A DNA stretch of 64,000 bases from Candidatus Pacebacteria bacterium GW2011_GWA1_46_10 (GCA_001002135.1 LCLP01000001.1:230274-294273), one strand, 5' to 3'; positions 9,551 to 43,808 are shown, counted from the first letter of the stretch. Program-made: numbers and translations. Notes: generated by a model not told the origin, from the sequence alone.

Positions 9551-10930
9551 GTGGTGTATAATTATACACCTCTCATGGTGAAGAAATCCCCACGTCAAAC
9601 TGCTTCCCGCAGGAGTGTAACCAGTAAAAAGCGACCGAAGAAATCGGTTCGTCAAACGTCATCTAAACGAAAAGCAGTCAAGAAAACTGTGAAAAAAGTT
9701 TCTCGGTCAACCAAGCAATCAGCCAAAAGACCAACTCAAAAAATGGTGAAAAAGACTGTCCGCAAACCTACCAAACCTACCAAACAAACCAAGCCAACCA
9801 AGGTTGAGCCGTTTATCATTCGTTCTCAGCAGGAGGAAAAACCCCTGCCAAAAATGACTGGCGAGCAGGTTGAGGCGCTTTTCAAAAAAGCCAAAAAGCA
9901 AGGCTTTGTGACTCAAGAGGAGATCTTGGATGTGTTTGTCGAGCCGGAGCTTTATTTGGAGCAGTTGGATGACTTTTATAGTCGAATTGTTGAGGCACAA
10001 ATTGACGTTTTTGAAGCTGTTTCAGAGGAGAAAGAAGAAGAGAGTGATGATGAGCTACAGCAGGAGTTAGATCTATTGGCCGGTCTGAAAAACACTGGTG
10101 TGGCTGACCCGGTCCGCATGTACCTCAAGGAGATTGGCCGGATTCCGCTTTTAACCCGTGAACAAGAAATTAGGTTGGCCCAAAGTGTGGAGGCCGGCGA
10201 CATGAAGGCGAAAAAGGGCTTGATCGATGCCAACCTCCGGTTGGTGGTGTCGATCGCCAAGAAATACATCGGTCGGGGTATGACCTTCCTGGATCTGATT
10301 CAAGAGGGCAACAAGGGTCTCATTCGCGCGGTCGAGAAATTCGACTGGACGAAGGGTTTTAAGTTCAGTACCTACGCCACTTGGTGGATCCGCCAAGCGA
10401 TTACCCGGAGTATTGCTGACCAAGCCCGCACCATTCGGATTCCGGTCCACATGGTCGAGACGATCAATAAACTAATGCGGACCAGCCGCCGGTTGATGCA
10501 AGACTTGGGTCGTGAGCCAACTCCTGAGGAAATTGGTAAACGGATGGAGAACATGGACCCGGATAAGGTTCGTGAAATTCTGAAAATTTCCCAAAATACC
10601 ACTTCACTGGAGACGCCGGTGGGCGATGGAGAAGATGACAGTATTCTCGGGGACTTTATTGCCGATGAAAAACAGGTTTCCCCGTATGAGGCTACCAGCA
10701 AACAGATGCTGCGGGAGAACATCGAAGAAGTCTTGGGTGCGCTTTCAGACCGTGAGGCCAGGGTACTGCGCATGCGGTTTGGGCTGCAGGGTAATAAAAC
10801 GATGACCTTGGAAGAGGTGGGTAAAAAATTCGGGGTCACCCGTGAGCGAATTCGTCAAATTGAGGCCAAGGCGCTGCGGAAGCTCAAACACCCTAGTCGA
10901 CGCAAAAAACTGCAGGATTTCCTCGAGTAA
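9551..10930 (+). CDS. rpoD: RNA polymerase primary sigma factor (sigma-70) with a Lys-rich N-terminal extension
   Basis: Regions 1.2, 2, 3 and 4 are recognisable: [87 protein letters not shown]. Start codon is ambiguous between GTG at 9551 and ATG at 9575. Confidence 0.9.
9553..9570. promoter_or_regulatory. Perfect 18-bp palindrome ggtgtataattatacacc overlapping a TATAAT hexamer at the rpoD 5' end
   Basis: The sequence equals its own reverse complement and contains tataat at 9558-9563. Confidence 0.45.
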
Positions 10931-10958: not shown

Positions 10959-10990
10959 CTTGCCAATTTCATTTTCGGTTGTTACGCTTC
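10959..10990 (+). repeat. Conserved 5' leader element, copy 1 (cttgccaatttcattttcggttgttacg)
   Basis: About 30 bp nearly identical to 43748..43779. Looser similarity continues into the N-terminal coding region of the paralogous gene. Confidence 0.6.
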
Positions 10991-11019
10991 ATGTTAAGGC
11001 CGTCAGTGACACTATTAGT

Positions 11020-11421
11020 ATGATTACCAAACAAGATTCTCTCCAACTGCAAAAAGACTTTAAAAAAGTTTTTGTTACGAAAGCGGAAATGAATGCCCGA
11101 TTCGACAAGATGGACGTGCGATTTGACAAAATAGATACCCGTCTCGATAAGATGGACGCGCGGTTTGATAAAATTAACGCTCGGTTTGACAAGATGGATA
11201 AGGATAACGAGGAACAAACCCTGAGTTTAGCTCAGACGTTTAATCAAATAAATGACAGATTTATCGCCATTGAGAAGAGATTGGATATGATTGAAGAGAT
11301 TTTGCGAAGAATGGATGACCGGCAAAGCAAGATGGAGGAGTTTATGAAAGTCATGTCGCTTAAACTCCTCAATCATGATGGTCGGATTGTCACTCTGGAA
11401 TCAAAAATCCTCTTGAGTTAG
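11020..11421 (+). CDS. Small coiled-coil protein with five tandem heptad repeats (RFDKMDx); paralog of the 43809..44192 gene
   Basis: ATG at 11020 gives MITKQDSLQLQ, shared with the paralog. Repeat block RFDKMDVRFDKIDTRLDKMDARFDKINARFDKMDK. Confidence 0.55.
   Translation: MITKQDSLQLQKDFKKVFVTKAEMNARFDKMDVRFDKIDTRLDKMDARFDKINARFDKMDKDNEEQTLSLAQTFNQINDRFIAIEKRLDMIEEILRRMDDRQSKMEEFMKVMSLKLLNHDGRIVTLESKILLS
11098..11202 (+). repeat. Five tandem imperfect 21-bp repeats inside the coiled-coil gene
   Basis: The units read cgattcgacaagatggacgtg, cgatttgacaaaatagatacc, cgtctcgataagatggacgcg, cggtttgataaaattaacgct and cggtttgacaagatggataag. Confidence 0.8.
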
Positions 11422-11439: not shown

Positions 11440-11514
11440 TCCCCTGTAGCTCAATGGCAGAGCAGGTCGCTGTTAACGACAAGGTTGGCGGTTCGAGTCC
11501 ACCCGGGGGAGCCA
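11440..11514 (+). tRNA. tRNA-Asn (anticodon GTT), CCA encoded
   Basis: Cloverleaf is recoverable: acceptor tcccctg/cggggga, D arm gctc-aatggca-gagc, anticodon loop cTGTTaa, T loop ttcgagt. There is one mismatch each in the anticodon and T stems. Confidence 0.75.
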
Positions 11515-12972
11515 AAGTTGATTATCGGTATGATTTAAGATTGTGTCGAATGGTTTTATCGCTTCATATCGCACTGTTTTACCCTCTACCCTAAGGTTCG
11601 ATAGTACGAGCTTGATTAACTGTCGTTTTTCCTCAACTTCCGAACTCTTGAACAAATCATAAGCTCGGTTTACTAGCTCCAGTAGGTATTTGCTCGAGAT
11701 GTAATAGTTATCCTCGGCTTCTTGAAGCATACCGAGTTGAGAGTCTAGCCCAGCTATTTGTTCACGGAATGATTGATAGAACTTGTCATACTCATCGTCA
11801 GTAATACGCCCCTTCAGTTTATCAAGGTAAAGATTGTCCATCATTTTAGTAACGCTTTTGTGTTCTGCTGTTAATTTATCGTATTGTTTGTTTTGAAAGT
11901 CCATTTTGTCTTGATGAACATTGTTTAGATTTACCACTACCTGCTCTAAAACCCAGTCGGGGATTTGTAATCGCTTAAATATACTTCCTATTTGCTCGGT
12001 TATATTTTCTTCCCGTAACCATTCAGCCCCGTGTTTGCCGTTATACTGCGTACAGTGGTAATAAACGTGTCCTTTGTGCTTTTCTGGGGTTACAGCGAGC
12101 CCACAATGACCGCATCGTAGTAAGCCCCGATAAGGGTAAGGCTTTCCAGCATATCTAGTTTTTTTCTTATTAAAACCTGCCTTGATTTGCTGTACCTGGT
12201 CATATAAAGTTTTTGCAATAATCGCTGGATACTTATGTTTATATTGCTTATTTTTCCAGGTCATTATTCCGTAATAGAAAGCGTTTTTGAGAATTTTATC
12301 TATCCAACCGTGGGACCACTCAACTGAATATTCGTTTTTTATTTTTGTGCGTAATAAATCCATCGAGAAACTACCAGTCGCATACCACTCATAAGCTTTT
12401 TGAACTACCCGTGATGCAAATTCATCTATAACTATTTCTGTTTTGTCCTTGTTTATTGGTTCTCTTTTGTAACCATAAGGTGGTCGGGCTGGATATGTGC
12501 CCATTCTAAGCATTTGTTCTTGAGCTCGTTTTACGTTATCGCTGATTGCGTCTGAGTAGTACTTGGCTAACCCAAGGCTGATACTGAAATTAAACTTTTC
12601 GACTGCGGATAGCTGGCTATTGATGACTTGTCCATCAGATACAAAATGTATTTCAATTTCATCTCTGAGAGCTTTTTCATAAAGGATGGAAACTCTTTTA
12701 TCAAATATGTTACGAGATAGGCGATCAACCTTATCAAATCCAATGGCTATTTTTTCTTTCTGTGAGAGGATGAAATCAAGAATACCATCAAAGTCATCCC
12801 TCTTATTCTTGTATGCACTTTCATCAAAACTGAACTCCTTTATAATTGGGTACCCTTTATTTTGAAAATATTTTCTTAGTCGCGCAGTTTGGGCTGGTAG
12901 AGAGTTACCAGCATCTTTTTGTTCTTCTGTGCTAACTCGTGAAGTTATAATTGCTTTCATGATTTTTGCCAA
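11473..12972 (-). CDS. Large serine recombinase (integrase)
   Basis: N-terminal resolvase catalytic domain (AIITSRVSTEEQ, GFDKVDRLSRN), a central recombinase domain, and a Cys-rich zinc ribbon (CGHCG...HC). The C-terminal codons run antisense into the tRNA-Asn. Confidence 0.8.
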   Translation of the reverse strand: MAKIMKAIITSRVSTEEQKDAGNSLPAQTARLRKYFQNKGYPIIKEFSFDESAYKNKRDDFDGILDFILSQKEKIAIGFDKVDRLSRNIFDKRVSILYEKALRDEIEIHFVSDGQVINSQLSAVEKFNFSISLGLAKYYSDAISDNVKRAQEQMLRMGTYPARPPYGYKREPINKDKTEIVIDEFASRVVQKAYEWYATGSFSMDLLRTKIKNEYSVEWSHGWIDKILKNAFYYGIMTWKNKQYKHKYPAIIAKTLYDQVQQIKAGFNKKKTRYAGKPYPYRGLLRCGHCGLAVTPEKHKGHVYYHCTQYNGKHGAEWLREENITEQIGSIFKRLQIPDWVLEQVVVNLNNVHQDKMDFQNKQYDKLTAEHKSVTKMMDNLYLDKLKGRITDDEYDKFYQSFREQIAGLDSQLGMLQEAEDNYYISSKYLLELVNRAYDLFKSSEVEEKRQLIKLVLSNLRVEGKTVRYEAIKPFDTILNHTDNQLWLPRVDSNRQPCR

Positions 12973-15900
12973 TGACTTTCAATATAGGATTGTGCCTCGC
13001 TCATGCTTAAAGAGCTAGTGTTATTGCCAGTTCTCACATATAGCTCTTCACTGCCTTGCGATTTTACATAGACTGGATTATCGGATTTTAGAACAGTAAT
13101 AAGACAAACATCTTTCCCTTCGATCATTTCGAAAATCGTACTGAAGTAACGCACTCGATCGGCGCCCATAGTTTCCTTTACAAGCTGAACTAAATGATTT
13201 TCAAACTCATCTCTATTTCCGTTACTCAAAGTCATATAATCTTGTTCTAGTCCAAAGATGCTCCCACCGTCCTCAACACCAATAATGAGTTGTCCACCTT
13301 CAGCATTCATGTATCCAGCAATCGTTTTAAGAATTACCTTTTCCAAGTCTTTGTTTGTTTTTCCTTGTCTAACATCCCATCTTAAAGTTGATTTAAATTC
13401 AAGTTTTTGGCTTTCACCTTTCTTGATGAGCTTGCCAATATCTTCATTTTCCAACTTTCGATAGATACGAGGCATAAGATACTGTTCAAGTTTGTCTCGG
13501 AGTTTTGGATCATTTATGAATTTCATGACCAACTCTTCATTGCGATCCATTCTTTCAACTAGAATATTGATAAGTTCTTCATTGAGCGGATATTTGAATG
13601 CGTCTTTTGGATTGACTTTGGCTTGATTCATTAAAGCCTCGTTGTTGTAAATGTCTTGCTCTATTTGGTCGATAAAAAGCTTATCTGCTTCTGTAAACTC
13701 AGTACCGAGTTTGTCATTGAGTATTTTGATAATTTCAGAAAGAATGGATTTGTCTTCGGTCTCGTAATCTATCGTGCCTGCGTCTTGCAGGGTAGCGAGC
13801 TCAACGGTACCTAGTTTCTCTGGGGTAATACTTCCTTCCTGAATTTTTTGCAGTTTGTAATATTGCAGAGCAATCTCGTCATTAAGATCAAACCGTTCGA
13901 CCGGGTCCTTGGGGAGAGCATTTCTCAGTAAACGTCCAAATACATACAGTTTTTCAAGATCTGAGTCGCTAAAAGGCATTACTTGTGAAAGAAATACATA
14001 CGCTCTAATAAAAGCGGTGAGTTGCTTCTTGAAATCTTCCTGTTTATCCTTTTCTTGCGTTTTGTATCGATCAATAGCTGGGGTGATAATGACATATAGT
14101 TTTTGTTGATCTGCTTTTGTTTGGTATCCAGAGAAGAAAACTTTTGCAAATGACTCTACTTCAGAGAGCCAGAAAACCTTGGAGTCGATCAGACTATTTT
14201 TAAGGTCGTATAAATGATTTGGATCGGTTGACTCATCGATTGAAGTATTCTCATAGTAAGGCTGAAACGCTTCAAGAATTTCACTTGGTTCATTTACAAA
14301 ATCCAAGATAAACGTATCTTCTTTGCCAGGGTGAGTGCGATTGAGTCGTGAAAGGGTTTGGACTGCTTTTACTCCAGATAACTTTTTATCTACAAACATA
14401 GTGTGGAGCAATGGTTCATCGTAACCAGTTTGGTATTTATCAGCTACAAGTAAGATACGATACTCATCAGTAGCAAACTTTTTTGGTAATTCCTTTTCAC
14501 CGAAACCATTTAGCTGAGGTTCAGTGACTTTTTCATCAGTGTCTGGGTCTTTAAGCGCCCCAGAAAAGGCAACCAGCACTCGAATATCGGTGTAGGCTTT
14601 TTCTTTCAAGTAGCGGTTAAATTCCTGATAGTAACGATAGGCGTGTAGGCGAGAGCTGGTCACAACCATTGCTTTTGCTTTACCACCAATTTTCTTCATT
14701 GTTATGTTGCGAAAATGCTCAGCAATAACCTCTGTTTTTTGAGCAAGATTGTGAGGATGCAGAGACAAGAATCTAGCTATGGCTTGATTGGCTTTTTTCT
14801 TATCAAGTTCTGGGTCGTCTTCGATTTTTTTAGTAATTCTGAAGTATGTTTTGTAAGTGGCGTAGCCTTTGAGCACATCAAGAATAAATCCTTCTTCAAT
14901 TGCTTGTCGCATGGAATACAGATGAAAGGGTACAGGCTTACCTTCTACATTTGAAACACCAAAGACTTCGAGCGTTTTGGCTTTGGGTGTGGCTGTGAAA
15001 GCGTAGAAGCTCAGGTTGTCTTGCTTGCCTCGTGCCGTCATGGATTGTCGAATATTATCTTCAACCGTTTCATCATCAGTAGTGTCTTCATTTTCTGCTT
15101 CCTCGAGAGTGTTAGCAGTCAACACTTGTTTCATCTGTTTGGCAGTTTCACCACCTTGTGAGCTGTGTGCTTCGTCAATAATTACCGCATACTTACTGGC
15201 TTGAAACTCACCGATTTGATCAAGCACAAAGGGAAATTTTTGTACCGTAGTGATTATGATCTTAACGCCTGCTCTTAGTGCATCTGCAAGCTGGTTAGAA
15301 TCTTTATCAATTCTCTTAACGACACCTTGCTTGTGATCAAATTGGTAGATAGTATCTTGTAACTGTTTATCCAAGACAATCCTATCGGTGACTACTATGA
15401 CTGACTTGAAAACTGGTTCGTTTTGATCGTCATGCAAACTTGAAAGGCGATACGCCAACCATGCAATGGAATTACTCTTGCCACTTCCTGCGCTATGCTG
15501 AATTAGGTAGTTCTTACCAACACCCTTTGCTTTGGTATCATGAGTAAGCTTGCGGACTACATCGAGTTGATGATAACGAGGGAAGATGATTGTTTCTTTT
15601 GTTTTGATTTTTCCACTAACTCGAATTTCTTGTTGCTCAAAGTGAATGAATTTTTGCAAAATATCCATCCAACTATCTTTGCTCCAAACTTCCTTCCATA
15701 AATAATCAGTTTTGTAACCTTGCTCATTAGGTGGATTGCCTGCTCCGTTTTGGTAGCCCTTATTAAAGGGTAAAAAGGATGTGTCCTCACCTTTTAAGTG
15801 AGTAGTCATGGAAACCTCATTTGGATCAACGGCAAAGTGGACTAAAGCTCTCTTCTTAAATTGAAACAACATTTCGTTGGTATCTCGTGTGTAGATGAAT

Positions 15901-16409
15901 TGTCTTTCAGCATTACTTTTATCTTGTCCTGTAAAAGGATTTTTCAGCTCTACTGTAGCTACAGGAAGTCCATTCAGAAAGAGCACTAAGTCAACTGCTA
16001 AATCTGGATTCTTGACACTAAAATGAACTTGGCGAGTTACGCTCAGGATGTTTTTTTGGTACAACTCAAGTGTTTCAGGGTTGAGATACGACTCAGGCTT
16101 GAAGTAAGCAAGATCTAGGTGAATACCATGATCATCAATACCTTCACGAAGCACTTTGAGCATACCCTTTTTCTCTAGCTCACGCACTAATCTAGAAATG
16201 ATTTTGTCTTCAAGCTGATCCTGATGAATATCAGAGAGCATTTGCCATTTTTCTGGCTGGGTATCGCATAGGAATGAGAGTAGGGTGGTTGTATCAAGAG
16301 CAAGTTGTGGGTCGAAATTATTAGCATTGCCTTGAACATATTCAGATTGGTTGATTAAGCTATCGACGATATTTGATTCGAATGTTTCTTCGTTATAAAT
16401 GTTGCTCAT
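12957..16409 (-). CDS. hsdR: Type I restriction enzyme R subunit fused to a C-terminal AlbA_2/Schlafen-like domain
   Basis: Helicase motif I QHSAGSGKS and DEAH box IIDEAHSS. The C-terminal 200 aa have AlbA_2 hallmarks: LEFKSTL, AGYMNAEGGQLIIGVEDGG and PVYVKSQGSEELYVRTGNNTSSLS. Confidence 0.8.
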   Translation of the reverse strand: MSNIYNEETFESNIVDSLINQSEYVQGNANNFDPQLALDTTTLLSFLCDTQPEKWQMLSDIHQDQLEDKIISRLVRELEKKGMLKVLREGIDDHGIHLDLAYFKPESYLNPETLELYQKNILSVTRQVHFSVKNPDLAVDLVLFLNGLPVATVELKNPFTGQDKSNAERQFIYTRDTNEMLFQFKKRALVHFAVDPNEVSMTTHLKGEDTSFLPFNKGYQNGAGNPPNEQGYKTDYLWKEVWSKDSWMDILQKFIHFEQQEIRVSGKIKTKETIIFPRYHQLDVVRKLTHDTKAKGVGKNYLIQHSAGSGKSNSIAWLAYRLSSLHDDQNEPVFKSVIVVTDRIVLDKQLQDTIYQFDHKQGVVKRIDKDSNQLADALRAGVKIIITTVQKFPFVLDQIGEFQASKYAVIIDEAHSSQGGETAKQMKQVLTANTLEEAENEDTTDDETVEDNIRQSMTARGKQDNLSFYAFTATPKAKTLEVFGVSNVEGKPVPFHLYSMRQAIEEGFILDVLKGYATYKTYFRITKKIEDDPELDKKKANQAIARFLSLHPHNLAQKTEVIAEHFRNITMKKIGGKAKAMVVTSSRLHAYRYYQEFNRYLKEKAYTDIRVLVAFSGALKDPDTDEKVTEPQLNGFGEKELPKKFATDEYRILLVADKYQTGYDEPLLHTMFVDKKLSGVKAVQTLSRLNRTHPGKEDTFILDFVNEPSEILEAFQPYYENTSIDESTDPNHLYDLKNSLIDSKVFWLSEVESFAKVFFSGYQTKADQQKLYVIITPAIDRYKTQEKDKQEDFKKQLTAFIRAYVFLSQVMPFSDSDLEKLYVFGRLLRNALPKDPVERFDLNDEIALQYYKLQKIQEGSITPEKLGTVELATLQDAGTIDYETEDKSILSEIIKILNDKLGTEFTEADKLFIDQIEQDIYNNEALMNQAKVNPKDAFKYPLNEELINILVERMDRNEELVMKFINDPKLRDKLEQYLMPRIYRKLENEDIGKLIKKGESQKLEFKSTLRWDVRQGKTNKDLEKVILKTIAGYMNAEGGQLIIGVEDGGSIFGLEQDYMTLSNGNRDEFENHLVQLVKETMGADRVRYFSTIFEMIEGKDVCLITVLKSDNPVYVKSQGSEELYVRTGNNTSSLSMSEAQSYIESHWQKS

Positions 16410-17761
16410 AGTATTTGATCCTTAATAAATTCTTCTGGGATTGGTTCATCACGAACATCGATTTTTCCAGTAACAGCACTTGAGATGAGTGTTTGGCGGT
16501 ATTCTCGAAGCAGGAGGTTTTGGGATATTAATGTATTTTTCTTGTTTTCAATTTTTTCTACATATCCATCTAGATATTGAGCTATTTTTACTAGCTCTTC
16601 TTCTGAAGGACTTAACAATGGTAGCCATTTTAATTCAGAGAAATTCAAGGTTTGCCTTACACCATTTCCAAGTCCATAAAGCACTTTACCTATATCATAA
16701 GAATGAAGTAGATAGTAATAGTATTGGGAATTAGATAGCTGATTTTTTGGGACAAGCCCAATATATGCTGAGGTTATAATTCCATGTTCTTTTGAAAGTC
16801 CAACTCTCAAACTTTTTTTATCATTTTGAAGGTCAGTTAGTCTTAAAATAATGTATCCCGAAGCTACTACTTGATAGCCCTGAAATGAACTTGGCAGTAA
16901 TCCAAAGTTATTTTCAACATTTCTTTTAATAATTCTTCCATAACTTAATGACAATACATTCTTTTCATTTTGGTTAATATTTTTGGTTTTGTTGTTTGAA
17001 AAGATTGCAAAAAGTGGTTTTATTTCCCAATGCTCAGGAACTTTCCCAATCCACTCAATGCCACTGTCTTTCATTTTGACCGTAGGATCGAGACCTTTAG
17101 TGACTACCTGATTGATGGTGGCTTGTTTTTTTTCTTCAAGGAGCTGGATGAGTTGTTTGTTTTTAGAGATGAGGTTGTCTATGAGGAAGATCTTATAGTT
17201 TAGGTATGAAGCAATTTTCTTCTGCATACTTGTATCGACTGAAATTGGAATGTATAAATTAGAAATAGTGTCTGAATTTAAATTTGCCAGCCCTGTGGTC
17301 GTATTTGAGAATATTTGATACTGCACTCTTGATATTTGTGAATTTAAATACCAATAACCAAATTGGCTGTTCATTTTAGTGTTTGGTCTTATTCTTTGCA
17401 TAAAGTTTGAGTAGCACGTTATTTCAGAGGTAATTCTCTTATCAACTACAGCGGTTTTTCCAATATGTAATTCGCTTCCGCTTGATTTAGTAATAATTAA
17501 ATCACCTATTTCTACTTTACTTTTTCTTATTTCAGCATCTGAGAGATCACGATAAGCAGAATCCTTCAAATTATTCCATTTACCATCGACGGATATTTCT
17601 GTAGACCTTAGTACTCTAGTTCCATTTTCCATGGGATCATTTCCCCATACTCCACCATCATTAGAAGTAATGAGCCACTTGAGTTTGCTTAGATACCAAT
17701 CTTGAGGGATTTCTCCAATCCAAGTTATGCCAGTTTGTTTGTATTTTGAATATGGCTTCAT
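16406..17761 (-). CDS. hsdS: Type I restriction-modification specificity subunit
   Basis: Two-TRD architecture with a central conserved spacer. 4-nt overlaps with both hsdM and hsdR. Confidence 0.75.
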   Translation of the reverse strand: MKPYSKYKQTGITWIGEIPQDWYLSKLKWLITSNDGGVWGNDPMENGTRVLRSTEISVDGKWNNLKDSAYRDLSDAEIRKSKVEIGDLIITKSSGSELHIGKTAVVDKRITSEITCYSNFMQRIRPNTKMNSQFGYWYLNSQISRVQYQIFSNTTTGLANLNSDTISNLYIPISVDTSMQKKIASYLNYKIFLIDNLISKNKQLIQLLEEKKQATINQVVTKGLDPTVKMKDSGIEWIGKVPEHWEIKPLFAIFSNNKTKNINQNEKNVLSLSYGRIIKRNVENNFGLLPSSFQGYQVVASGYIILRLTDLQNDKKSLRVGLSKEHGIITSAYIGLVPKNQLSNSQYYYYLLHSYDIGKVLYGLGNGVRQTLNFSELKWLPLLSPSEEELVKIAQYLDGYVEKIENKKNTLISQNLLLREYRQTLISSAVTGKIDVRDEPIPEEFIKDQIL

Positions 17762-19479
17762 GAGAGTATTTCTTTTAATAACCCATCACTTTCTTTTTCA
17801 AGTTCAAGAATGTCTTTCGTTATTTCCTCGAGTGAACGGAGGGGCTTATATTCATAAAAGTGTTTGGTGAAGTTTATTTCATACCCAACTTTGGTTTGGC
17901 TCTCATCAATCCAGGCATCTGGAACGTGGGGTTTTACCTCACGTTCAAAATACTCATGAATATCCTCTTTGAGTGGCACATTTTCTCTATCTCTCAGGCT
18001 AGTATCAGGCTTGGGGTTACCGCCCTTATCAGTGATTATTTTTCCATTTTTATCTATTTGAGGTCTTTCGATAGCAATCTGATTGTATCCAAAATCTTCA
18101 TTATCAAAAATCTTTGAGAATTTTCCTGACTTGATCTCACCATGCATTTCAACAATCTTGGCTATGTCTTCATCGGCAATTTCATGACGTTTGTTTCCCA
18201 AGCTCTTGCTCATCTTTTTGTAGAAATTAACTGCGTTAATTAGTTGAATTTTGCCTTTTCTTTCATTTGATTTACGATTGGTTAAGATCCAAATGTAGGT
18301 AGAGATTCCAGTGTTGTAAAAAAGTTGATCGGGAAGAGCAATGATCGCTTCTAAAAGGTCGTTTTCAATGATCCATTTACGAATGTCAGATGGACCACTT
18401 CCAGCACTTCCAGTAAACAGAGGTGAGCCGTTGAAGACGATTGATAATCTGCTCCCGCCATTAGACGGCTTCATCTTCGCAAGCATGGTTTGAAGGAATA
18501 AAAGAGAGCCATCGCTGATGCTTGGTAAGCCTGCTCCAAAACGTCCGCCATAACCAAGATCTTCATGTTCGGAAACAACTTCTTTTTGAGCTTTATTCCA
18601 CTTCACTCCAAAGGGAGGGTTGGAGAGCATATAGTCGAACTGTACATTAGATAGTTTATCATCACGCAGGGTATCTCCAAAACGGATATGCTCTGCATTG
18701 TGACCAGTAACCATCATGTCTGATTTACAAATAGCATAAGACTCGGGATTAATTTCTTGCCCGAATAATTCAAGCCGTGCATCTGGGTTTAACTCTTGGA
18801 GGTAATCTTCTGCAACGGTTAACATACCACCAGTTCCACAAGCTGGGTCGTAGATTGTTTTGACAATACTTTTCTTAGATAGAATTTCATTATCGTTTGT
18901 GAAAAGTAGGTTAACCATTAAACGAATGACTTCTCTTGGGGTAAAGTGTTCTCCTGCCGTCTCATTTGAGGATTCGGCGAACTTCCGAATTAACTCTTCA
19001 AAGATGTATCCCATTTCCAAATTAGTAACTTTTTTTGGGTTAAGATCAATTTCTTGGAATTTTTTAACTACTTGATAGAGCAAATCTGCCTTATCGAGCT
19101 TGATAATTTGTTTATCAAACTCAAAGTTTTCTATGATATCTCTAGCATCCTTTGAAAAACCATTTAGATAGTTGCGAAGATTTGGGGCGATATTGCTTGG
19201 GTCAGCAATTAGTTTATTGAAATCAAATTGACTATGATTGTGAAACTTTCTGCCTGCAATCTTGTTCAATAGAATATCTGGATCATCAATCTGTTTGTCC
19301 TTGATAGACCCGTACTGTTTTAGAACTATTTCTTTTGTATCCTCCAAGTCACAGTCAAGTCTACGAAGCACAGTAAGTGGCAAAATAACTTTGCCATAAT
19401 CTGATTGCTTATAATCACCACGGAGCAGATCAGCCACGCTCCAGATAAAGTTTGCGTATTGTGAGATATTAAGTTTCAT
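17758..19479 (-). CDS. hsdM: Type I restriction-modification N6-adenine DNA methyltransferase subunit
   Basis: HsdM N-terminal domain (NFIWSVADLLRGDYKQSDYGKVILPLTVLRRL) and catalytic motif LSNPPFG. Confidence 0.85.
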   Translation of the reverse strand: MKLNISQYANFIWSVADLLRGDYKQSDYGKVILPLTVLRRLDCDLEDTKEIVLKQYGSIKDKQIDDPDILLNKIAGRKFHNHSQFDFNKLIADPSNIAPNLRNYLNGFSKDARDIIENFEFDKQIIKLDKADLLYQVVKKFQEIDLNPKKVTNLEMGYIFEELIRKFAESSNETAGEHFTPREVIRLMVNLLFTNDNEILSKKSIVKTIYDPACGTGGMLTVAEDYLQELNPDARLELFGQEINPESYAICKSDMMVTGHNAEHIRFGDTLRDDKLSNVQFDYMLSNPPFGVKWNKAQKEVVSEHEDLGYGGRFGAGLPSISDGSLLFLQTMLAKMKPSNGGSRLSIVFNGSPLFTGSAGSGPSDIRKWIIENDLLEAIIALPDQLFYNTGISTYIWILTNRKSNERKGKIQLINAVNFYKKMSKSLGNKRHEIADEDIAKIVEMHGEIKSGKFSKIFDNEDFGYNQIAIERPQIDKNGKIITDKGGNPKPDTSLRDRENVPLKEDIHEYFEREVKPHVPDAWIDESQTKVGYEINFTKHFYEYKPLRSLEEITKDILELEKESDGLLKEILS

Positions 19480-19670
19480 TAATTTTTCCTTTCAGATAGA
19501 AAAGACTCTAAGTCGTGCTTGGATATTCGATGTTGTTTACCCGCCTTAACAGCGTGTAATTTTTTTGCCTGCACCCATCTATAAACAGTTAGATAGGCTA
19601 CTTTTAGCATTTTGGAGATTTCTTTAATGGAGTAATATTGCTCTTCTATCATATTAGTTATATTTATCAT
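19479..19670 (-). CDS. Excisionase-family / MerR-like HTH DNA-binding protein
   Basis: 63 aa with HTH segment IKEISKMLKVAYLTVYRWVQAKKLHAVKAGKQHRISKHDLESFL. It overlaps the hsdM start. Confidence 0.6.
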   Translation of the reverse strand: MINITNMIEEQYYSIKEISKMLKVAYLTVYRWVQAKKLHAVKAGKQHRISKHDLESFLSERKN

Positions 19671-20817
19671 TATTTAACATTGTATCTTGAAAATCAACTA
19701 GTTTTAGTGGTTCAAAATTGGTCAAATGCTCACGAATTACTTCAAGTGGGCTTTTGGAAGGGGGCAATTTGACGGTTTTTGCCTCTGCAATGAGTCTATA
19801 CCAACTCCTTTGACTGTATCCACTAAACATAGTTCTAAGCTCACGAGGCGTTATATCGTTGAAAATTTGTTTTAGTCCATAGAGCTGTACGGTTTTTTTT
19901 AGTCCAAGGCGAGAATTATTAATAATAAGGTCTGCCAATAAGGATTTTGGACTTGTTGGTTTGTAATCAAATAGCGGTAGTCGTTTACTTTCAACTTCAT
20001 CGAGATAATGTAGTAAGACTTGTTGAGAAATGCTTGGGCTAAAAAGGTTCTTATAAGTAAGCTCTGATTGAATGCCAAGCGTGCGGAATAACTGCTTTAT
20101 TTTCTGCCGTTTATTGAGCCGTACTTCCATTCGTAAGACCTCTAGCTGTTTTCTTTTCTCAAATGTATCAAAAAGGCTAAGTTGTAAGGCATTATCTCTT
20201 TCTACCGCTCGTTTCTCACTTTTCTTTGCCATTTCGAGGTCTTTTATCTTATCGTAAAAAGCTACTTCATATGAGTTGGCATGCCATTTGTAGCTGTGTC
20301 CATCATTGCGGTAGTCTGTTTGGTTTATATCGAGTGAAAGTTTTATATTTGCTTCATTAATCTTGCTAATAAGGTAATGAGGTGTAGACCCATCTGTTAG
20401 AGGTATATTTTTAGAATAATGAATAGCTGACACTGGTGCATTAAGTAAAAATTTTTCCCAAACCATCACGCCCATATCTTTAAGACGGGATTTTAATAGT
20501 TTGGTAACAGGATCAAAGTCGTCAATCGACAACTCGTCAAAATTATTGCCAAAAAGCAGTTTAGGCAGAGATAATTCTATTTTAAGTGTTGCTTCGCGCC
20601 TGCCTGTGTGGTTAAAACGGTTCGTTAAGGTAAGTCGTGGCTTATAGATACCACTTTGTAATTCTCGCTTAGTGGGGTTTTGTTTTGCAGGAATATATCC
20701 ACGACTACCCATAGATGAGTTTTCATCAAGTATTAGCCTAGCAGATGGTTCAAACCTATCTGGTTCTTTAATGTAATACATACCTTTACTTAGTGTTAAA
20801 ACTACTGTGTCTAGCAT
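19654..20817 (-). CDS. Hypothetical island protein (possible replication or mobilisation function, unproven)
   Basis: 387-aa ORF overlapping its neighbours within the same operon. No clear motif. Confidence 0.35.
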   Translation of the reverse strand: MLDTVVLTLSKGMYYIKEPDRFEPSARLILDENSSMGSRGYIPAKQNPTKRELQSGIYKPRLTLTNRFNHTGRREATLKIELSLPKLLFGNNFDELSIDDFDPVTKLLKSRLKDMGVMVWEKFLLNAPVSAIHYSKNIPLTDGSTPHYLISKINEANIKLSLDINQTDYRNDGHSYKWHANSYEVAFYDKIKDLEMAKKSEKRAVERDNALQLSLFDTFEKRKQLEVLRMEVRLNKRQKIKQLFRTLGIQSELTYKNLFSPSISQQVLLHYLDEVESKRLPLFDYKPTSPKSLLADLIINNSRLGLKKTVQLYGLKQIFNDITPRELRTMFSGYSQRSWYRLIAEAKTVKLPPSKSPLEVIREHLTNFEPLKLVDFQDTMLNNDKYN

Positions 20818-21082
20818 ACATTTTGGTTACATTTTCAAACTTTGAAATGATTACTTTTTCTATTTTTTCCGCAATATTTCGGTTAATGGGATGAAAGATA
20901 TTAAAATTACCGCTCGGACCCTTGCGAGTGGGGTAGGTCAATCGATACCCACCTTGCGGTCTGGTATAGATACCAATGGACCCAAAATAAAAGCTGTCGT
21001 TATAAACGAAGCTCGCAAAACCCACCAAGCCATCTCTTGCTTTGATTGGTGTTATTTGAACTTCGCTTAATATGTCTTTCAT
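20786..21082 (-). CDS. SpoVG-like nucleic-acid-binding protein
   Basis: Resembles SpoVG: N-terminal VQITPIKARDGLVGFASFVYNDSFYF, YPTRKGPSGNF and the HPIN motif. Confidence 0.5.
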   Translation of the reverse strand: MKDILSEVQITPIKARDGLVGFASFVYNDSFYFGSIGIYTRPQGGYRLTYPTRKGPSGNFNIFHPINRNIAEKIEKVIISKFENVTKMYARHSSFNTK

Positions 21083-21417
21083 ATTTTCCCCTTAGGTTGG
21101 TTTTCAATAGATAATCCATCGATGCATCGTTCCAACTCTTTATCACTCCAATTTTCAAGTGATTCCCAACCCATCATCAATAAATCCTCTAAAACCTCTG
21201 TATTTTGAGCGTGACAAATATCACAGACCTTGTCATTAATGATGATTTGGTATGCTCTATCACGGCTTACTTGTTTACCAAATGCTTGGATTTTTACACC
21301 CATCTTTTCTTTACGTGCTCGAATGCCTTCTTTTACCCTCTTACTAAATAGTCTGTGATAATCAGTTGTCAACAAATCCAGAAGTTGAGTCTGAAAACTC
21401 TTGTTTATTTTTTTCAT
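21079..21417 (-). CDS. Hypothetical protein; first gene of the minus-strand island operon
   Basis: 112-aa ORF with a palindrome and a conserved 5' motif upstream. Confidence 0.4.
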   Translation of the reverse strand: MKKINKSFQTQLLDLLTTDYHRLFSKRVKEGIRARKEKMGVKIQAFGKQVSRDRAYQIIINDKVCDICHAQNTEVLEDLLMMGWESLENWSDKELERCIDGLSIENQPKGKI

Positions 21418-21429
21418 TTGTTACTTTCT

Positions 21430-21444
21430 TTGACCGTTGGTCAA
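21430..21444. promoter_or_regulatory. 15-bp palindrome ttgaccgttggtcaa in the 5' UTR of the 21417 gene
   Basis: Perfect inverted repeat about 14 nt upstream of the start codon (minus orientation). Confidence 0.4.
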
Positions 21445-21617
21445 TACTTATTAGAATTGAGAAAAAATCAGTCAACCTTGCCATATCATCAACATCAAAG
21501 CCTTCCGTACTCCTTTCAGGGCTTTGCAACTTTTTGAGCTGGGAATTGGTAAAGCTCGACCGCATTAAGTCGAGGATATAAAAAGGAAGGTTGTCCCAAG
21601 TGGGTCAACTAGTTGTC

Positions 21618-23192
21618 CTACTTTTTGTGGAACAAGAAATCGGAGTTTATATTAACCGTCATCATCGAGTAAATAAAGAAGTTTTGCTTGCCAGTCTTGC
21701 TAGCAATTACAGCATTGAGGTCCCTACAAAGATAGTAAATTTTCCGTTGAGCTTGTTTGGTATCATAATCGTTTGAACCACTGATTGCTTCATAAAGTTC
21801 GACTGATTGCCATTCTTGTTTTGCGATGTTTTTGTTTTTTGACAATATTTTGAGTAATTCTGTGCGATTTGTGTTACTTTTCAACTTAATAGTCTTGTTT
21901 GCCACTGTTAATGTGTTGGTTCTAGTATCGAAACTCCAAGTATCACTAGAAGACTCCACTACTGTTGGTTGTTTTATTGTCGACTCATCAGGAACTTGTT
22001 TTCGTTCGTGTTCATCAAATTTGAGTAATAATTCTTTGGCATATAAATGAACACGCTCCATGTAATTTTTGTAAGTTTCGACATGGAACTCACGAATGTA
22101 GTGATTTGGGTCATGTGGTTTAGTTAGTATTGTATTCAACTCATCAGATAGCATTCCTGCCGATAATGCAGTAAGTGGTTTGCCACTCTCCATGTACTGC
22201 TTGTAAACACTCTCATGATCTATGTAGAGCCTATGAAATGTAAATAGCTTGTCCCAGCTGAACCACGGTCTTGTTTCCCGCAGACGTTCTTGCTTTAGTT
22301 TTTCTTGTTTGTGCCCCTCATAACTTGGTGAAAAAATATACTTCCTCACAAAGCCGTCAGGAGTTAGTTCAGCGTACTGTTGGGCAATTTTTAGGTGTTC
22401 GGTATTTTTTGTTGCCACTAATCCTCGAATAATATCCTCAACTTCACCAATTCGACCAGACAGTGGTCCCTCAGTGCTTTCTATTGTTCCTTTTTCGTAA
22501 GAGTGGTAGTTCTTTATTGCCCCAGTAATAATTGCATTTTTTATGCCTGCTTTTGAACAATATACAGAGAGTTTCTGAAATGCCTTGTCTATTTCAGAAT
22601 AAGCCAGCTTTTCGAGTTGTTTTAATTTAGTTGTTTCGGTGTTACCTAAATCGTTAAGAGCACGAACGACGCCCCTAAGCAAGCCCTCTCTAAAATAGCC
22701 ATCAACATATTCGAACAGGTTGCTAAAAAAGAACTTCGGTTCAGCTGTTTCTTTTACTCTTTTGTAAATTGCGTCGATTTGTTCTACTAATAAGGAGACT
22801 TCTGAAACTGGGTTATCTAATTGAGAAAACTCTGGTGGATTCTCTTTGCCCTCGTATATGTTCCTTTGGTACTCATTTAGATATGTAGTGACGTCGCATA
22901 TCTTTTGATACTTAGTGTAAACGGTCTCAAACGTAGAAGGGTAGATGTCAAGGTAGAGCACGTCGTTAGTACTAACTGGTGGTTCAAACGGGCTTTCTCG
23001 CACTCGTAGAGCACCTAATTCCTGCAACTTGAAAATGATACCCTCACGTCTGTCCCTTGGAATAATGCCTGCACCAGCAACGTGTGGCATTTTGTATTTC
23101 ACTGGCTTATCATTTTGAGTTGCGAGTGTTTCCTCTTTGATGTCTTGGAGTATTTCCCAAACCTGCTGATTAAACTTTTCTTCTGGCGTCAT
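21618..23192 (-). CDS. Hypothetical 524-aa protein with no recognisable domain
   Basis: Long uninterrupted AT-rich ORF, divergent from the AlbA_2/HD gene pair. Confidence 0.5.
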   Translation of the reverse strand: MTPEEKFNQQVWEILQDIKEETLATQNDKPVKYKMPHVAGAGIIPRDRREGIIFKLQELGALRVRESPFEPPVSTNDVLYLDIYPSTFETVYTKYQKICDVTTYLNEYQRNIYEGKENPPEFSQLDNPVSEVSLLVEQIDAIYKRVKETAEPKFFFSNLFEYVDGYFREGLLRGVVRALNDLGNTETTKLKQLEKLAYSEIDKAFQKLSVYCSKAGIKNAIITGAIKNYHSYEKGTIESTEGPLSGRIGEVEDIIRGLVATKNTEHLKIAQQYAELTPDGFVRKYIFSPSYEGHKQEKLKQERLRETRPWFSWDKLFTFHRLYIDHESVYKQYMESGKPLTALSAGMLSDELNTILTKPHDPNHYIREFHVETYKNYMERVHLYAKELLLKFDEHERKQVPDESTIKQPTVVESSSDTWSFDTRTNTLTVANKTIKLKSNTNRTELLKILSKNKNIAKQEWQSVELYEAISGSNDYDTKQAQRKIYYLCRDLNAVIASKTGKQNFFIYSMMTVNINSDFLFHKK

Positions 23193-23260
23193 AGTTCGTT
23201 ACATTTTCAAAACTTATGTTTGTTTATCATATTTTATCAGTTTAACGATAGAATAGTGTT

Positions 23261-24712
23261 ATGGGAGACAAGGCAAAAAAAGCTATAGAAACTCGAAGTA
23301 TTTCACTCGATGAAGTGATTGCCATCCTTTCGTCTAACAAACCTGAAGAATTGATTGGAGTAGAAGAAACGGCATATTTTGAGTGTAGAGGGGTTTCCTA
23401 TTTAACTTCTTTTGGTGAACAATCAGACATAGAAAGACATAAGTTTAATTTGGTTAAAGACGTGGTTTCGATTGCCAATTCTGGTGGTGGGGTTATCTGC
23501 ATCGGTGTCAAAACTTTAGAAAAGTCGAATGAAAAAACAGAGTATATTACCGAGATTGCACCAGTTCCTAAAGACCATATTCAAATGAAGAGTTGGGAAG
23601 ACATACTTTTTGGTTATAGTATTCCGAAATTTAAGAGACAGTGGCTTAAATATGGATACAGTGGCACAGATAAAAAAGTCTTTTGGATAAAGATTGCGGA
23701 CATTCGGGAGACTGCGGAATACCCAGTATTGGTGAGTTTATCTAAGAAATATGAGGAGGGTGTATCAACCGTTAAAGAGAACTTTGGTTTGTACTTTAGA
23801 GACCGTTCAGTCAATGTTCCATATTCTCCTGAAAAACTGCACACATTTATTCAGGCAGGGTTTAGAGGGAATGACAATGGTCAAGCGAGATACCTTAAAT
23901 CTATGCTAGAAGCGATTGACACAAAAATAGACCTACTTTCAAAAAAAGTGAGTAAAGAAGACGCAAAACAAATAAAACTTGAATTAAGAGAGGAGATTGC
24001 CAATTACGTTATTCAAAAGCTCGATAGCTCAAAAGGTCTTTTCTACCTTTTTGCTTTTCCTGTCAAAGATGCAGTAATCAAAGAGTTCTGGGAGCAAGGC
24101 GATAAATCTGTTTATCACCTTATCAAGAACACGCCACATTTAAGAGAGACGGGTTGGGATTTACGTGTAGCTCAGTCTGAGTATCCATATCCCAATAAAA
24201 ATAAATGGGAAATTACAAATGGTAATCGTAAGCTCACGAGCTTTGATATTCGAGGTAGATTGTTTAGTGCTGGTTCAATAGACGGGTTCTTAAATTGGGG
24301 GGTTAGAGATTATAAAACAGACGAAAAACACAACATAGTAAATGCATTTGCTCTAACAGAATATATTGATAGTTTTTTCCAAACCTTGGAAGTATTCAAA
24401 ACGGTTTTTGATATAAAAAGTGATTATGAGGTTGAAGCTGGGTTTTTGGAGGCTGGAAGCAACACTAAACTCTTATTTCCTCCTCATATTATAAGTATTT
24501 TCCACGCTTTGACAGAAACCATCAAACAGGAAAAATGGGATGTAGACGTTAGGCTGGAAGACGATAAGCACCCCTCTTATTTTGCTGGACAATTAATACA
24601 AGAAATTTATGTAAGTGGATTTGGTTATGTGAGCCATCCAGATTATCCTTATCTTACTAAAGATGATAAAGGGTATAAGGTTAATGAGGCTTTGTATATC
24701 AGACAAAAATAG
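23261..24712 (+). CDS. Protein with an N-terminal AlbA_2/Schlafen-like domain and an unknown C-terminal domain
   Basis: VKDVVSIANSGGGVICIGVKTLEKSNEK matches the AlbA_2 G-G-x-I-x-I-G-V block. Upstream an E/EF-rich segment (VEETAYFECRGVSY) is present. Confidence 0.5.
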   Translation: MGDKAKKAIETRSISLDEVIAILSSNKPEELIGVEETAYFECRGVSYLTSFGEQSDIERHKFNLVKDVVSIANSGGGVICIGVKTLEKSNEKTEYITEIAPVPKDHIQMKSWEDILFGYSIPKFKRQWLKYGYSGTDKKVFWIKIADIRETAEYPVLVSLSKKYEEGVSTVKENFGLYFRDRSVNVPYSPEKLHTFIQAGFRGNDNGQARYLKSMLEAIDTKIDLLSKKVSKEDAKQIKLELREEIANYVIQKLDSSKGLFYLFAFPVKDAVIKEFWEQGDKSVYHLIKNTPHLRETGWDLRVAQSEYPYPNKNKWEITNGNRKLTSFDIRGRLFSAGSIDGFLNWGVRDYKTDEKHNIVNAFALTEYIDSFFQTLEVFKTVFDIKSDYEVEAGFLEAGSNTKLLFPPHIISIFHALTETIKQEKWDVDVRLEDDKHPSYFAGQLIQEIYVSGFGYVSHPDYPYLTKDDKGYKVNEALYIRQK

Positions 24713-24843
24713 CTTTAGGTAATCGCAAGATTAAAGGTGTCGAATACTGTTTGGATATTTTGTAAACTAAATCCAAACTCTATCTCTCGGTTCTTAAATG
24801 CGTCAACCAGGGGGAGCTTAATATATTTTGATATAATTGATAA

Positions 24844-25467
24844 ATGGCATTTGATGAGGTTCTTTCTCCTGTTCTTCAGACAGATTTGAGGTCTAAGTAT
24901 CACCCCGTTCTTGTCGCTTATCAAAATAATGAGTGGATAAGAGAGCAAATGGCATTGCTCGAAAGTCACGGCGATCTAGATCATGCGGTACGGGTTGCTT
25001 TTTTGGCAGCTGAGTTAGCAAAGCATGTGGAAATGAACGATGATGAGATATTGATTATTGCCAAAGCAGGGTTGTTGCACGATCTAGGAAAATTACAAAT
25101 ACCGCCTGAAATTTTTAAAAAAGTACAACTTACAGAAAAAGAGAGAGCTTTAGTTGATGAGCACGTTCGAGCTGGCTTTGAGTTGGTGAAGGAGCGTTTC
25201 CCGTTTGTAGCAAAAATAATGGTTGCTCATCACGAGTTTCAAGCTAGAAGGTACCCGAGAAAAAATGACCGAGATCCTGTTGGCACGAGACTGAGGGAAT
25301 TGCAGAGATTATTAGCAATCGCCGACCAGACAGACGCTCTGTTGAGTGCCAGGTCATACAAAAAAAGATGGCCAATCTATAAAGTGAGAGAATACCTTAA
25401 TGATTTATTTGATGATCACCACTTAATCGATTTTTCTATTGCTAAAAGAATCAGCATAGTAGATTAA
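24844..25467 (+). CDS. HD-domain metal-dependent phosphohydrolase
   Basis: H...HD...H...D pattern in HAVRVAFLAAELAKH, GLLHDLGK, AHHE and DQTDAL. Confidence 0.65.
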   Translation: MAFDEVLSPVLQTDLRSKYHPVLVAYQNNEWIREQMALLESHGDLDHAVRVAFLAAELAKHVEMNDDEILIIAKAGLLHDLGKLQIPPEIFKKVQLTEKERALVDEHVRAGFELVKERFPFVAKIMVAHHEFQARRYPRKNDRDPVGTRLRELQRLLAIADQTDALLSARSYKKRWPIYKVREYLNDLFDDHHLIDFSIAKRISIVD

Positions 25468-25473
25468 ATTTTT

Positions 25474-25830
25474 TTAAATCTTTTTTCCGGCAATTTTTTG
25501 TCGGAGGATTTCAAATTCGGGTATTTCTGCGTCCAGATTCTGAGCGACCACAAGTAAGTTATCAATGGCGTTCTGAGCGTCTTCCCAGAGTCCGGCAGCT
25601 GCATAAGTTTGGGCAAGATGGTAGTTGAACCAGAGATCACGTTCTGGGCCGGCCCAGGCAGAGTCAGCTTCTTGTTGGAGTTGATGGATAAACTCATCTA
25701 GAGCTTGGCGAAGCTCGTTTTCAGGTTTTTGTTCACGCACTGTTTGGATGAATATCTCCCTGCTTGGTTTGGCCGTTGCCGTCTCGGCAATAACTGAGTC
25801 ATATGTGGCTGGCTTTGTCTCTTTGTCCAT
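25474..25830 (-). CDS. Hypothetical small helical protein
   Basis: 118-aa ORF convergent with the HD gene. Confidence 0.35.
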   Translation of the reverse strand: MDKETKPATYDSVIAETATAKPSREIFIQTVREQKPENELRQALDEFIHQLQQEADSAWAGPERDLWFNYHLAQTYAAAGLWEDAQNAIDNLLVVAQNLDAEIPEFEILRQKIAGKKI

Positions 25831-25943
25831 AGGTTTACTTTACAATAAAAGATTAAGAAATCATAGAAAAATAGTCAAATTCTAGCAATCGTTCTTAAAA
25901 ACGACTTGGATTTGTGATACTTAAGATGGTGTTCGGATAAAAT

Positions 25944-25965
25944 CCTCCTGGGGGGAGCCAAGGGT
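25944..25965 (+). repeat. Degenerate copy of the tRNA-Asn 3' end (tcctcctggggggagccaag); candidate attR
   Basis: The tRNA 3' end at 11496..11516 reads gagtccacccgggggagccaaag. The candidate at 25941..25970 reads aatcctcctggggggagccaagggttaaag. About 17 of 22 positions match, with one indel. Confidence 0.35.
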
Positions 25966-26012
25966 TAAAGTTTCCTTGTAGTCTGTATAAAACCTTCTTA
26001 TAATGTAACTAA

Positions 26013-26624: not shown

Positions 26625-26860
26625 GAACACTCCATTCTACATATTCAACTAAACGGAACGGGTAATTCTCGAACAACTAGTATGAAACAAATTCGATAAG
26701 GGGGCAATCAATCCCAAAGAGATAAAAATTGGCGCGTTGATGAAAAAAGCAGTGATCTTAGAACCAAGCTCATCACTGTTCTCAACTTTCTCGATACCAG
26801 GAAGCTTAAATGAAGTCTTATAGTATATTCGAATTCCTTTCTTTGATATAATTTTTAACA

Positions 26861-27670: not shown

Positions 27671-27733
27671 AGTTCTTATTAATTCATGAAGATGAAGCTC
27701 TAGTTTTCCTTACAGATGATCTTCTTTGTCCAG

Positions 27734-28093: not shown

Positions 28094-28385
28094 TTTTTCC
28101 TCCTTTAATTTTAATTAAGTAGTACGATGCCGGCATTCAGTAGCGTGGCAAAACTAACCCAAAGTAGATAAGGCACCAGTAAACACGCCGCCTAAAATGC
28201 CGACTAACTCACAGCCGATAATGGAGATGATAAGCTTGGGCAGGTTTTTCATCTCTTTTCAGAGTAAAGTAAGCTTGATAAGAAAACAATCAGTATCGCA
28301 GAAAGCGGTTGACCTCTTTTGTCATATTCGACTGTCAGGAACTTCTTGGTGTATTTCAACCATAGTCTTTGTTAAGATTAAGATT

Positions 28386-43700: not shown

Positions 43701-43747
43701 CTTTTATTGACTTGAGTAAAACTCTGATTTATCCCTTTTATTTTTCG

Positions 43748-43779: not shown

Positions 43780-43808
43780 GTGTTAGTGTCCATGGTGATA
43801 CTAACAAT

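Follow-up and report, generated by a model that had tools for sequence, protein, structure and literature searches.

Two diverged coiled-coil paralogs of a Candidatus Pacebacteria genome probably share an inherited promoter region and a structural N-terminus beside independent restriction-modification islands

Introduction

Why do two small coiled-coil genes of Candidatus Pacebacteria bacterium GW2011_GWA1_46_10, here called A and B, begin with the same residues, carry nearly the same DNA upstream of their start codons, and both stand at the left edge of a restriction-modification (R-M) block? The genes lie in a stretch of 64,000 nucleotides (nt) of that genome (GCA_001002135.1 LCLP01000001.1:230274-294273), referred to herein as the window. 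An earlier note on this DNA placed A before tRNA-Asn and a Type I R-M island and B before a HAD hydrolase gene and a Type III R-M system, neighbours that our annotation confirms (Table 1). It further proposed that the conserved leader suggests common regulation or an RNA element, and that the repeated position beside R-M genes may not be coincidental. Here we analyse the leader, the two proteins and their relatives, and the gene neighbourhoods in other genomes. The account that we think probable, though well short of certain, is that two diverged paralogs have retained an inherited promoter and a structural N-terminal motif, and that their adjacency to R-M genes arises from separate variable slots.

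Results

A single direct repeat spans the leader and the 5' end of both genes

Searching the window for the 28-nt core of the leader, CTTGCCAATTTCATTTTCGGT[T/C]GTTACG, gave two matches on the + strand (10959-10986 and 43748-43775) and no others, and 100 shuffles gave an expectation of zero. With a repeat finder and pairwise alignment, we placed the two matches within a single 166-nt direct repeat (10917-11082 and 43706-43871; 71% identity, spacing 32,789 nt). The homology is free of gaps from CT(C/T)GAGTAA, approximately 98 nt 5' of the ATG, through approximately codon 20. The near-identical stretch of about 30 base pairs (bp) that had been described upstream of both genes is therefore real, and takes the form of a 29-nt block with two differences. 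Since the repeat measures 166 nt, the homology is wider than the earlier note stated, and the pairwise alignment that the note had proposed as a check both confirms it and broadens it.

The residues MITKQDSLQLQ open both ATG-start open reading frames (ORFs), the first 11 codons specifying identical residues, and the remainder of the two proteins has diverged, as had been noted: BLASTP of A against B aligned the first 24 residues only, 17 of which are identical. When A was aligned to a profile of the B family with hhalign, the match covered residues 1-132, the full length (probability 97.3%, E = 1.7e-11). Judged by these comparisons, A and B are true paralogs that have diverged, and the family of small coiled-coil proteins to which they belong is unnamed.

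No third copy of the leader (nhmmer with a leader profile) and no third family member were found in the window, and viral contigs contained no match to the leader pattern. In metagenome contigs a 19-base leader pattern matched nine loci, one of which is real, namely the A locus of a sister strain (L140). A 17-base pattern matched 119 loci in genome contigs; all were rejected as chance matches, as the pattern is too short.

The leader resembles a promoter region

To the leaders of A and B we added those of C and D, which lie at the rpoD locus and the ADH locus of the sister strain, respectively, and those of three distant loci (L145, L156 and L157). These seven loci, drawn from five genomes, align without gaps from -60 to +36. 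Approximately 33 nt before the ATG we predict a sigma-70-type promoter, P1. A second, -10-like hexamer, P2 (GAYACT), has a geometry that would yield a leaderless or near-leaderless mRNA (Table 1). The T, A, C and final T of TACnnT are invariant in all seven loci, as are a TGT four bases on and the A, A and T of the second hexamer (xAxAxT), the intervening bases of which vary. In A-D, TTGCNA lies exactly 17 nt 5' of TACGNT, and the fifth base of each hexamer is the variable one; the P1 spacer reads ATTTCATTTTC. Against the sigma-70 consensus, TTGCCA matches at 5/6 positions and TACGCT or TACGGT at 3/6, with T1, A2 and T6 kept. Two distant family members (L160 and L169) have TTGACA, 17 nt and TAnnGT, 8 nt before a start codon that gives the M-L-T N-terminus of the family.

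The spacers of such distant promoters contain motifs of their own (TTGACA-N5-CATTTCAC-N4-TAnnGT in L160, 6950-7013, and L169, 1990-2065; CCATTACAC in L163, 7940-8000). These recall the ATTTCAT of the window block, an observation made post hoc.

Purifying selection would keep the leader DNA more alike than adjacent synonymous sites. Between A and B we counted 2 mismatches in the 29 positions of the block, versus 13 in the 24 third codon positions of the first 24 codons (Fisher p = 1.8e-4) and 14 in the 31 positions of the remaining leader (p = 0.001). As the upstream DNA appears to be under constraint, common transcriptional control of the two genes is plausible, and to this extent the proposal of common regulation stands. 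From these alignments we infer that the shared leader is a promoter region of the family.

In a permissive scan of the window, run with no null, we counted 21 ORF starts at which TAnnnT, often TATAAT, ends 5-9 nt 5' of the start codon; a Shine-Dalgarno site is rare among them. Among the starts with such a close -10-like hexamer are those at 23261, 24844, 44214, 54665 and 57365, and at 56434-57177 on the - strand. This pattern suggests that leaderless mRNAs may be common in this Pacebacteria genome. One of these starts belongs to a HicB-like ORF (57365-57667, no Pfam match) that follows tRNA-Arg (CCG) and precedes a HicA toxin gene (57660-57890, PF07927) in the region 57241-57890. Its upstream DNA, GTTACGGTTATTGTT...TATAAT followed by 6 nt and ATG, resembles the P1/-10 region of the leader. 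We considered this gene as a possible third paralog on account of that likeness and rejected it, as its product is unrelated and its downstream neighbour encodes a HicA toxin.

Neither RNA structure nor coding sequence accounts for the conserved block

A conserved leader could also be a cis-regulatory RNA (a riboswitch, attenuator, thermosensor or small RNA target) that co-regulates both genes. Just 5' of the AUG of B, GUUAGUGUC-N6-GAUACUAAC can pair as a 9-bp hairpin, similar stems are present in C (9 bp) and D (6 bp), and these stems would mask a Shine-Dalgarno-like GGUGAU/AGUGAU site. Copy A, however, is unable to form the hairpin, and transcription probably starts downstream of the best-conserved block. 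Rfam gave no match to the leader at the gathering score or at E <= 10; over the whole window it returned only two tRNAs at the gathering score and, at E <= 10, two chance matches, both on the opposite strand. Single-sequence folds were no better than those of shuffles (z from -0.8 to +1.6), and RNAalifold predicted 0 pairs across the seven homologous loci. The hairpin positions pair in 68.3% of cells (shuffles, 68.2%), and their covariation score is 0.185 (shuffles, 0.195). Lacking an Rfam match, consensus pairs and excess covariation, the RNA element that had been offered beside common regulation falls away, and we regard it as very unlikely.

Public gene calls would make the block coding instead, starting the genes at TTG 10960 and TTG 43749, such that the block encodes MPISFSVVT. 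No stop codon interrupts the frame between TTG and ATG in A, B or C, and the public entries P0001 (153 amino acids, aa) and P0121 (147 aa) use the TTG start. Over this interval, however, the variable columns are spread 8/8/6 across codon positions, with 8-10 non-synonymous versus 0-2 synonymous codon changes. The first 13 codons of the real coding sequence of A and B, by comparison, show six synonymous differences and one non-synonymous difference. Most family members begin at M[IL]TKxD, as does P0004, the A ortholog of the sister strain (strain C; 101 aa, 52% identity), which also has an ATG start. On reading the sequence before the TTG we saw no Shine-Dalgarno-like or -10-like signal. A coding role for the block is, in our view, extremely improbable, and the public calls for A and B probably start approximately 20 codons too early, within the predicted promoter.

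Segmental duplication and probable exchange of 5' ends

The sequence CT(C/T)GAGTAA stands at the same offset in 4/4 leaders. At A and C it is the stop region of rpoD, and at B and D it is non-coding and follows the ADH stop. Because this relic of the rpoD stop region sits non-coding behind ADH, the ADH-locus copy is shown to derive from a segmental duplication of the rpoD-locus copy. Along with the gene, the duplicated segment took in the final codons of rpoD and the intergenic region.

In the sister strain (L146, 291-1120), ADH is followed by the leader, D (117 aa), a 9-nt gap and E (P0123, 135 aa), the last of which is the B ortholog. In the window B alone is attached to the leader; a deletion or an insertion between the similar 5' ends may account for the difference. 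At codons 3-11, nine aligned sites unite A with B and C with D, in each case the genes of one genome, and 0 unite genes of the same locus. This pattern suggests that paralogs in one lineage have exchanged N-terminal variants at least once.

Recent gene conversion or recombination of 5' ends, whether concerted or as a cassette-like shuffling of N-termini, might then be the main source of the similarity, with no constraint on the non-coding DNA. Such a history would fit the finding that A and its ortholog C carry different N-terminal variants, each matching the other leader-linked gene of its own genome, and the near-equal distances among leaders A, B and C over 119 nt, with patchy shared sites (15/14/16). 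A deletion between similar 5' ends would also produce the fusion of B to the leader from the tandem arrangement of D and E. The differences between A and B are distributed otherwise than this history would predict: they affect 5 of 11 third positions where the N-terminal codons specify identical residues, and 14 of 31 positions from P1 to the ATG, but only 2 of 29 in the block, and such alternating conserved and diverged segments are unlike a conversion tract. The same hexamer positions are also conserved in three further genomes, and both N-terminal variants occur widely across the family, in which they are old. We consider it unlikely that recombination is the main source of the similarity.

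A promoter and 5' end kept from a common ancestor has precedents among paralogs that arise by segmental duplication in the multigene families of reduced genomes. There, as here, the upstream DNA, the start and the first codons are shared, the rest has diverged, and there are signs of exchange between 5' ends. Mycoplasma variable surface-protein genes may offer a comparison of this kind. The present case differs in having two copies in 64 kb, with no signal peptide, invertible element or recombinase site at the repeats.

A family of small coiled-coil proteins with a beta-layer motif

When B was used in a phmmer search against 1.84 billion representative proteins, 22 family members were recovered, and a follow-up profile search raised this to 150. 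The proteins are small (approximately 60-135 aa). M[IL]TKxD stands at the N-terminus, FATKxD[LI] occurs one to four times, and there are also a long helix and a conserved C-terminal block, VMGELKAIREE...HSDQLENHExRLxKLE. Proteins of the window are identical to entries of Candidatus Pacebacteria bacterium GW2011_GWB1_47_8, itself a candidate-phyla-radiation genome. Family members with a source name come from candidate-phyla-radiation bacteria (Gottesmanbacteria, Levyibacteriota), and MITKQDSL(Q/R)L... also opens P0122, P0123 and P0124 from other genomes. The family surfaced only through the exhaustive phmmer search, as a shared-word homolog search with B recovered B alone. A search with A was swamped by widespread proteins with RFDKMD heptad repeats, its true orthologs being only P0004 and P0005. 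P0109, which has a similar C-terminus, was rejected as a relative of A; it lies in a SpoVS/YmdB/RecA neighbourhood, an unrelated context. Pfam, NCBIfam, PADLOC and PHROGs gave no family-level assignment or meaningful score for the A and B family, and in the literature we found nothing usable on the sequence motifs of the family or on leaderless transcription in candidate-phyla-radiation bacteria.

Within gene A, a 21-nt tandem repeat at 11098-11198 (4.8 copies, 66% matches) encodes the RFDKMD-type heptads. P0004 has a single copy of this repeat and, at 101 aa versus 133 aa, is the shorter protein, and the length of the coiled coil therefore varies between strains.

The beta-layers of trimeric alpha/beta coiled coils have the consensus [aliphatic]-A-T-K-[polar]-[D/E], a motif that can also serve as a stable cap at the extreme N-terminus of such a protein (Hartmann et al. 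2016, eLife, PMC4786415). Both A (MITKQD, FVTKAE) and B (MITKQD, FATKQD, FATKKD) fit this motif. The family consensus is FATKxD/E, with I or V in place of A in some copies. In an AlphaFold2 monomer model of B (predicted local distance difference test score, pLDDT, 87.7), residues 4-17, 21-34 and 38-124 are helical. The breaks fall exactly at M1-T3, F18-T20 and F35-T37 (M-I-T, F-A-T and F-A-T), and the helix resumes at K. The best sequence match of the family profile in the PDB was the Tcar0761 construct 5apz, a weak match (E = 0.031), and Foldseek of the B model against the PDB returned no match. At the level of the motif, M-I-T-K-Q-D is thus shown to fit an N-capping beta-layer, and the motif and model together suggest that the A and B family may form parallel trimers. 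Since the motif recurs across the family, the shared N-terminus would be a structural family trait, not a signal or regulatory peptide.

Two known systems resemble this arrangement. As in Tcar0761 of Thermosinus carboxydivorans, [aliphatic]-A/V/I-T-K-[polar]-[D/E] is repeated within a long coiled coil, and A and B are likewise stand-alone coiled coils without an enzymatic domain. They differ from the Tcar0761 type in that their motifs are 17 residues apart, not in nonad arrays, and in that their family has its own conserved C-terminal block. DUF16/MPN010 (PF01519) of Mycoplasma pneumoniae is similarly a small coiled-coil family with many paralogs per genome, and MPN010 has been cited as having a beta-layer at the N-terminal end of its coiled coil (PMC4786415). 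DUF16 was the top Pfam match of A, at 26.8 bits versus a gathering score of 40, and B had no match, so that neither is a DUF16 member by the Pfam criterion; DUF16 matches at E <= 0.01 were obtained for 2 of the 22 family members. Neither A nor B matched Pfam DUF3782 or DUF1640 (PF07798, CCDC90-like). Among the 22, one matched PF07798 (1.7e-5), and DUF3782 was absent from the matched families.

The R-M blocks are independent cargo in two variable slots

Downstream of A, a large serine recombinase gene and Type I hsdR/S/M genes (11473-19479, - strand) belong to an island with a guanine-plus-cytosine (GC) content of 0.35-0.40, versus 0.46-0.51 in its flanks. The order of rpoD, the A ortholog and tRNA-Asn is the same in the sister strain, which lacks the Type I island. 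The sister-strain sequence diverges from that of the window 3' of tRNA-Asn, where a 150-aa gene follows directly; this gene matches 29083-29520 here at 72% aa identity. Since these 17.5 kb have low GC, are absent from the sister strain and begin with a recombinase, the island was inserted at the tRNA. The low-GC recombinase/Type I block is thus like other tRNA-linked islands in starting at the 3' end of a tRNA gene and in being missing from a close relative. It differs in that its integrase is a large serine recombinase and in that the repeat finder detected no flanking direct repeat of the tRNA.

At the B locus, the Type III block has a GC content of 0.40-0.42. A syntenic relative, L145, has six genes in the same order, including B and HAD, and has a 1076-aa Type ISP/IIG enzyme after HAD (L145 10905-14643) instead of Type III mod and res. 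As the R-M types after HAD differ between the window and L145, the slot is variable, and in holding different R-M types in two syntenic genomes it resembles a defence-gene hotspot.

These comparisons bear on the claim that adjacency to R-M genes is not coincidental. Repeats or paralogs tied to R-M cargo might be attachment (att) or recombination sites that bound a mobile region, or the proteins might be R-M accessory or regulatory factors. Both copies do abut R-M blocks, a serine recombinase adjoins copy A, and in L145 the B ortholog again lies two genes upstream of an R-M system, although of another type. Several sub-threshold matches are also to DUF16, and an N-terminal beta-layer is what its structurally solved member MPN010 has been cited for. 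Between the repeats, however, lie 32.8 kb with core genes, of core GC and in synteny with L145, so that the repeats are not the ends of a mobile element. Both leaders are present in the sister strain, from which the Type I island at tRNA-Asn is absent, and the boundary of the island is the tRNA, not the repeat. On these grounds we rejected the repeats as att sites. With PADLOC, A and B produced no more than weak coiled-coil noise, and HAD produced no match.

Neighbourhoods of homologs in other genomes gave the same answer. In a small sample of six more distant members (L156, L157, L160-162, L163, L166-168 and L169), no called neighbour belongs to an R-M Pfam family; these members adjoin rpsO/pnp, methyltransferase/TspO, pentose-phosphate, sortase and similar genes. 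Among the loci examined in other genomes, only the syntenic L145 locus has an R-M system near a family member. At the level of the gene family, then, copies largely lie at unrelated loci without defence genes and the leader lacks structural conservation, the two observations that the earlier note had named as speaking against its own proposal. We regard a dedicated link between the paralogs or repeats and R-M cargo as highly improbable. Comparison between genomes instead shows two variable slots, one 3' of tRNA-Asn and one downstream of HAD, each occupied by R-M genes as independent foreign cargo, and we see nothing that ties these genes functionally to the coiled-coil genes.

Several further features of the two slots were observed. 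The serine recombinase ORF overlaps the 3' part of tRNA-Asn on the opposite strand, and the Type I HsdR (12957-16409, - strand) has a C-terminal Schlafen AlbA_2 domain. Several large island ORFs (19654-20817, 21618-23192 and 23261-24712) have no Pfam or PADLOC match. A 37-nt stretch of the island (26717-26753) is 84% identical to 29477-29513, the 3' end of a 145-aa gene (29083-29520), and may be a relic of an earlier junction. In the slot at the B locus, the start of mod and the stop of HAD share one base, and the R-M genes may, from this arrangement, be co-transcribed with HAD.

Table 1. Positions of the predicted promoter elements, the paralogs and their neighbours in the window
Feature	Position	Strand	Description
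rpoD last codons and stop (CTCGAGTAA)	10922..10930	+	5' edge of homology; RpoD domains in ORF 9551-10930
P1 of copy A (predicted)	10960..10988	+	TTGCCA (10960-10965), 17-nt spacer, TACGCT (10983-10988)
P2 of copy A (predicted)	11008..11013	+	-10-like GACACT, ends 6 nt 5' of ATG
Gene A	11020..11421	+	133 aa; ATG start; N-terminal MITKQD, FVTKAE motif, five RFDKMD-type heptads, C-terminal NHDGRIVTLESK
tRNA-Asn (GTT)	11440..11514	+	ARAGORN, Rfam; integration site of Type I R-M island
Low-GC island	11515..29050 (right end approximate)	.	Serine recombinase and Type I hsdR/S/M (Pfam); not part of paralog pair
rpoD-end relic, non-coding (CTTGAGTAA)	43711..43719	+	11 nt after ADH stop 43698-43700; ADH ORF 42759-43700
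P1 of copy B (predicted)	43749..43777	+	TTGCCA (43749-43754), 17-nt spacer, TACGGT (43772-43777)
P2 of copy B (predicted)	43797..43802	+	-10-like GATACT, ends 6 nt 5' of ATG
Gene B	43809..44192	+	127 aa; MITKQD, two FATKxD motifs, one long helix, C-terminal HSDQLALHDKRLDKLESK
HAD hydrolase gene	44214..44675	+	Pfam; conserved neighbour of B; 65% identical and syntenic in L145
Type III R-M	44675..49161	+	mod 44675-46435, res 46432-49161; Pfam, PADLOC; variable cargo after HAD

Discussion

Our comparisons favour a reading in which the leader of A and B is an inherited promoter region and their common N-terminus a structural trait of the family. Several observations weigh against it. P1 falls below the threshold of the promoter scanner (4/6 per hexamer) and is unlisted in either copy, TACGCT matching TATAAT at 3/6. 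The first base of P2 is G, and there is no TG extension in A-D. The 17-nt P1 spacer is as conserved as the hexamers, for which contacts of RNA polymerase alone are insufficient; a regulator site or recent homogenisation may lie behind this conservation. L145 is without the T-rich/-35 part of the block, and the full leader is present in two strains only, such that the conservation statistics reflect few independent lineages. For the proteins, both the trimer and the beta-layer are drawn solely from the sequence motif and a monomer model. Finally, the order of B and HAD and then an R-M system in two genomes could reflect more than a hotspot.

The conserved spacer also invites a bolder proposal. 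A dedicated regulator could use the 29-nt block as its operator, or a specialised sigma factor could recognise it, in keeping with the ATTTCA-like spacer motifs in promoters of distant members; the factor would co-control a family of small trimeric alpha/beta coiled coils across candidate-phyla-radiation bacteria, with the paralogs also exchanging N-terminal modules by recombination as a means of variation. We hold this to be unlikely, and prefer the inherited promoter and structural N-terminus set out above.

Under the preferred reading, the apparent link of a coiled-coil gene and its leader to R-M islands is explained by two independent variable slots beside core genes. Known tRNA-linked islands and defence hotspots account for the neighbourhood, not for the paralog pair. 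These results leave the understanding of defence systems and of RNA regulation unchanged, and the finding is real but ordinary. It does define a small, unnamed and fairly widespread protein family of candidate-phyla-radiation bacteria that is worth naming.

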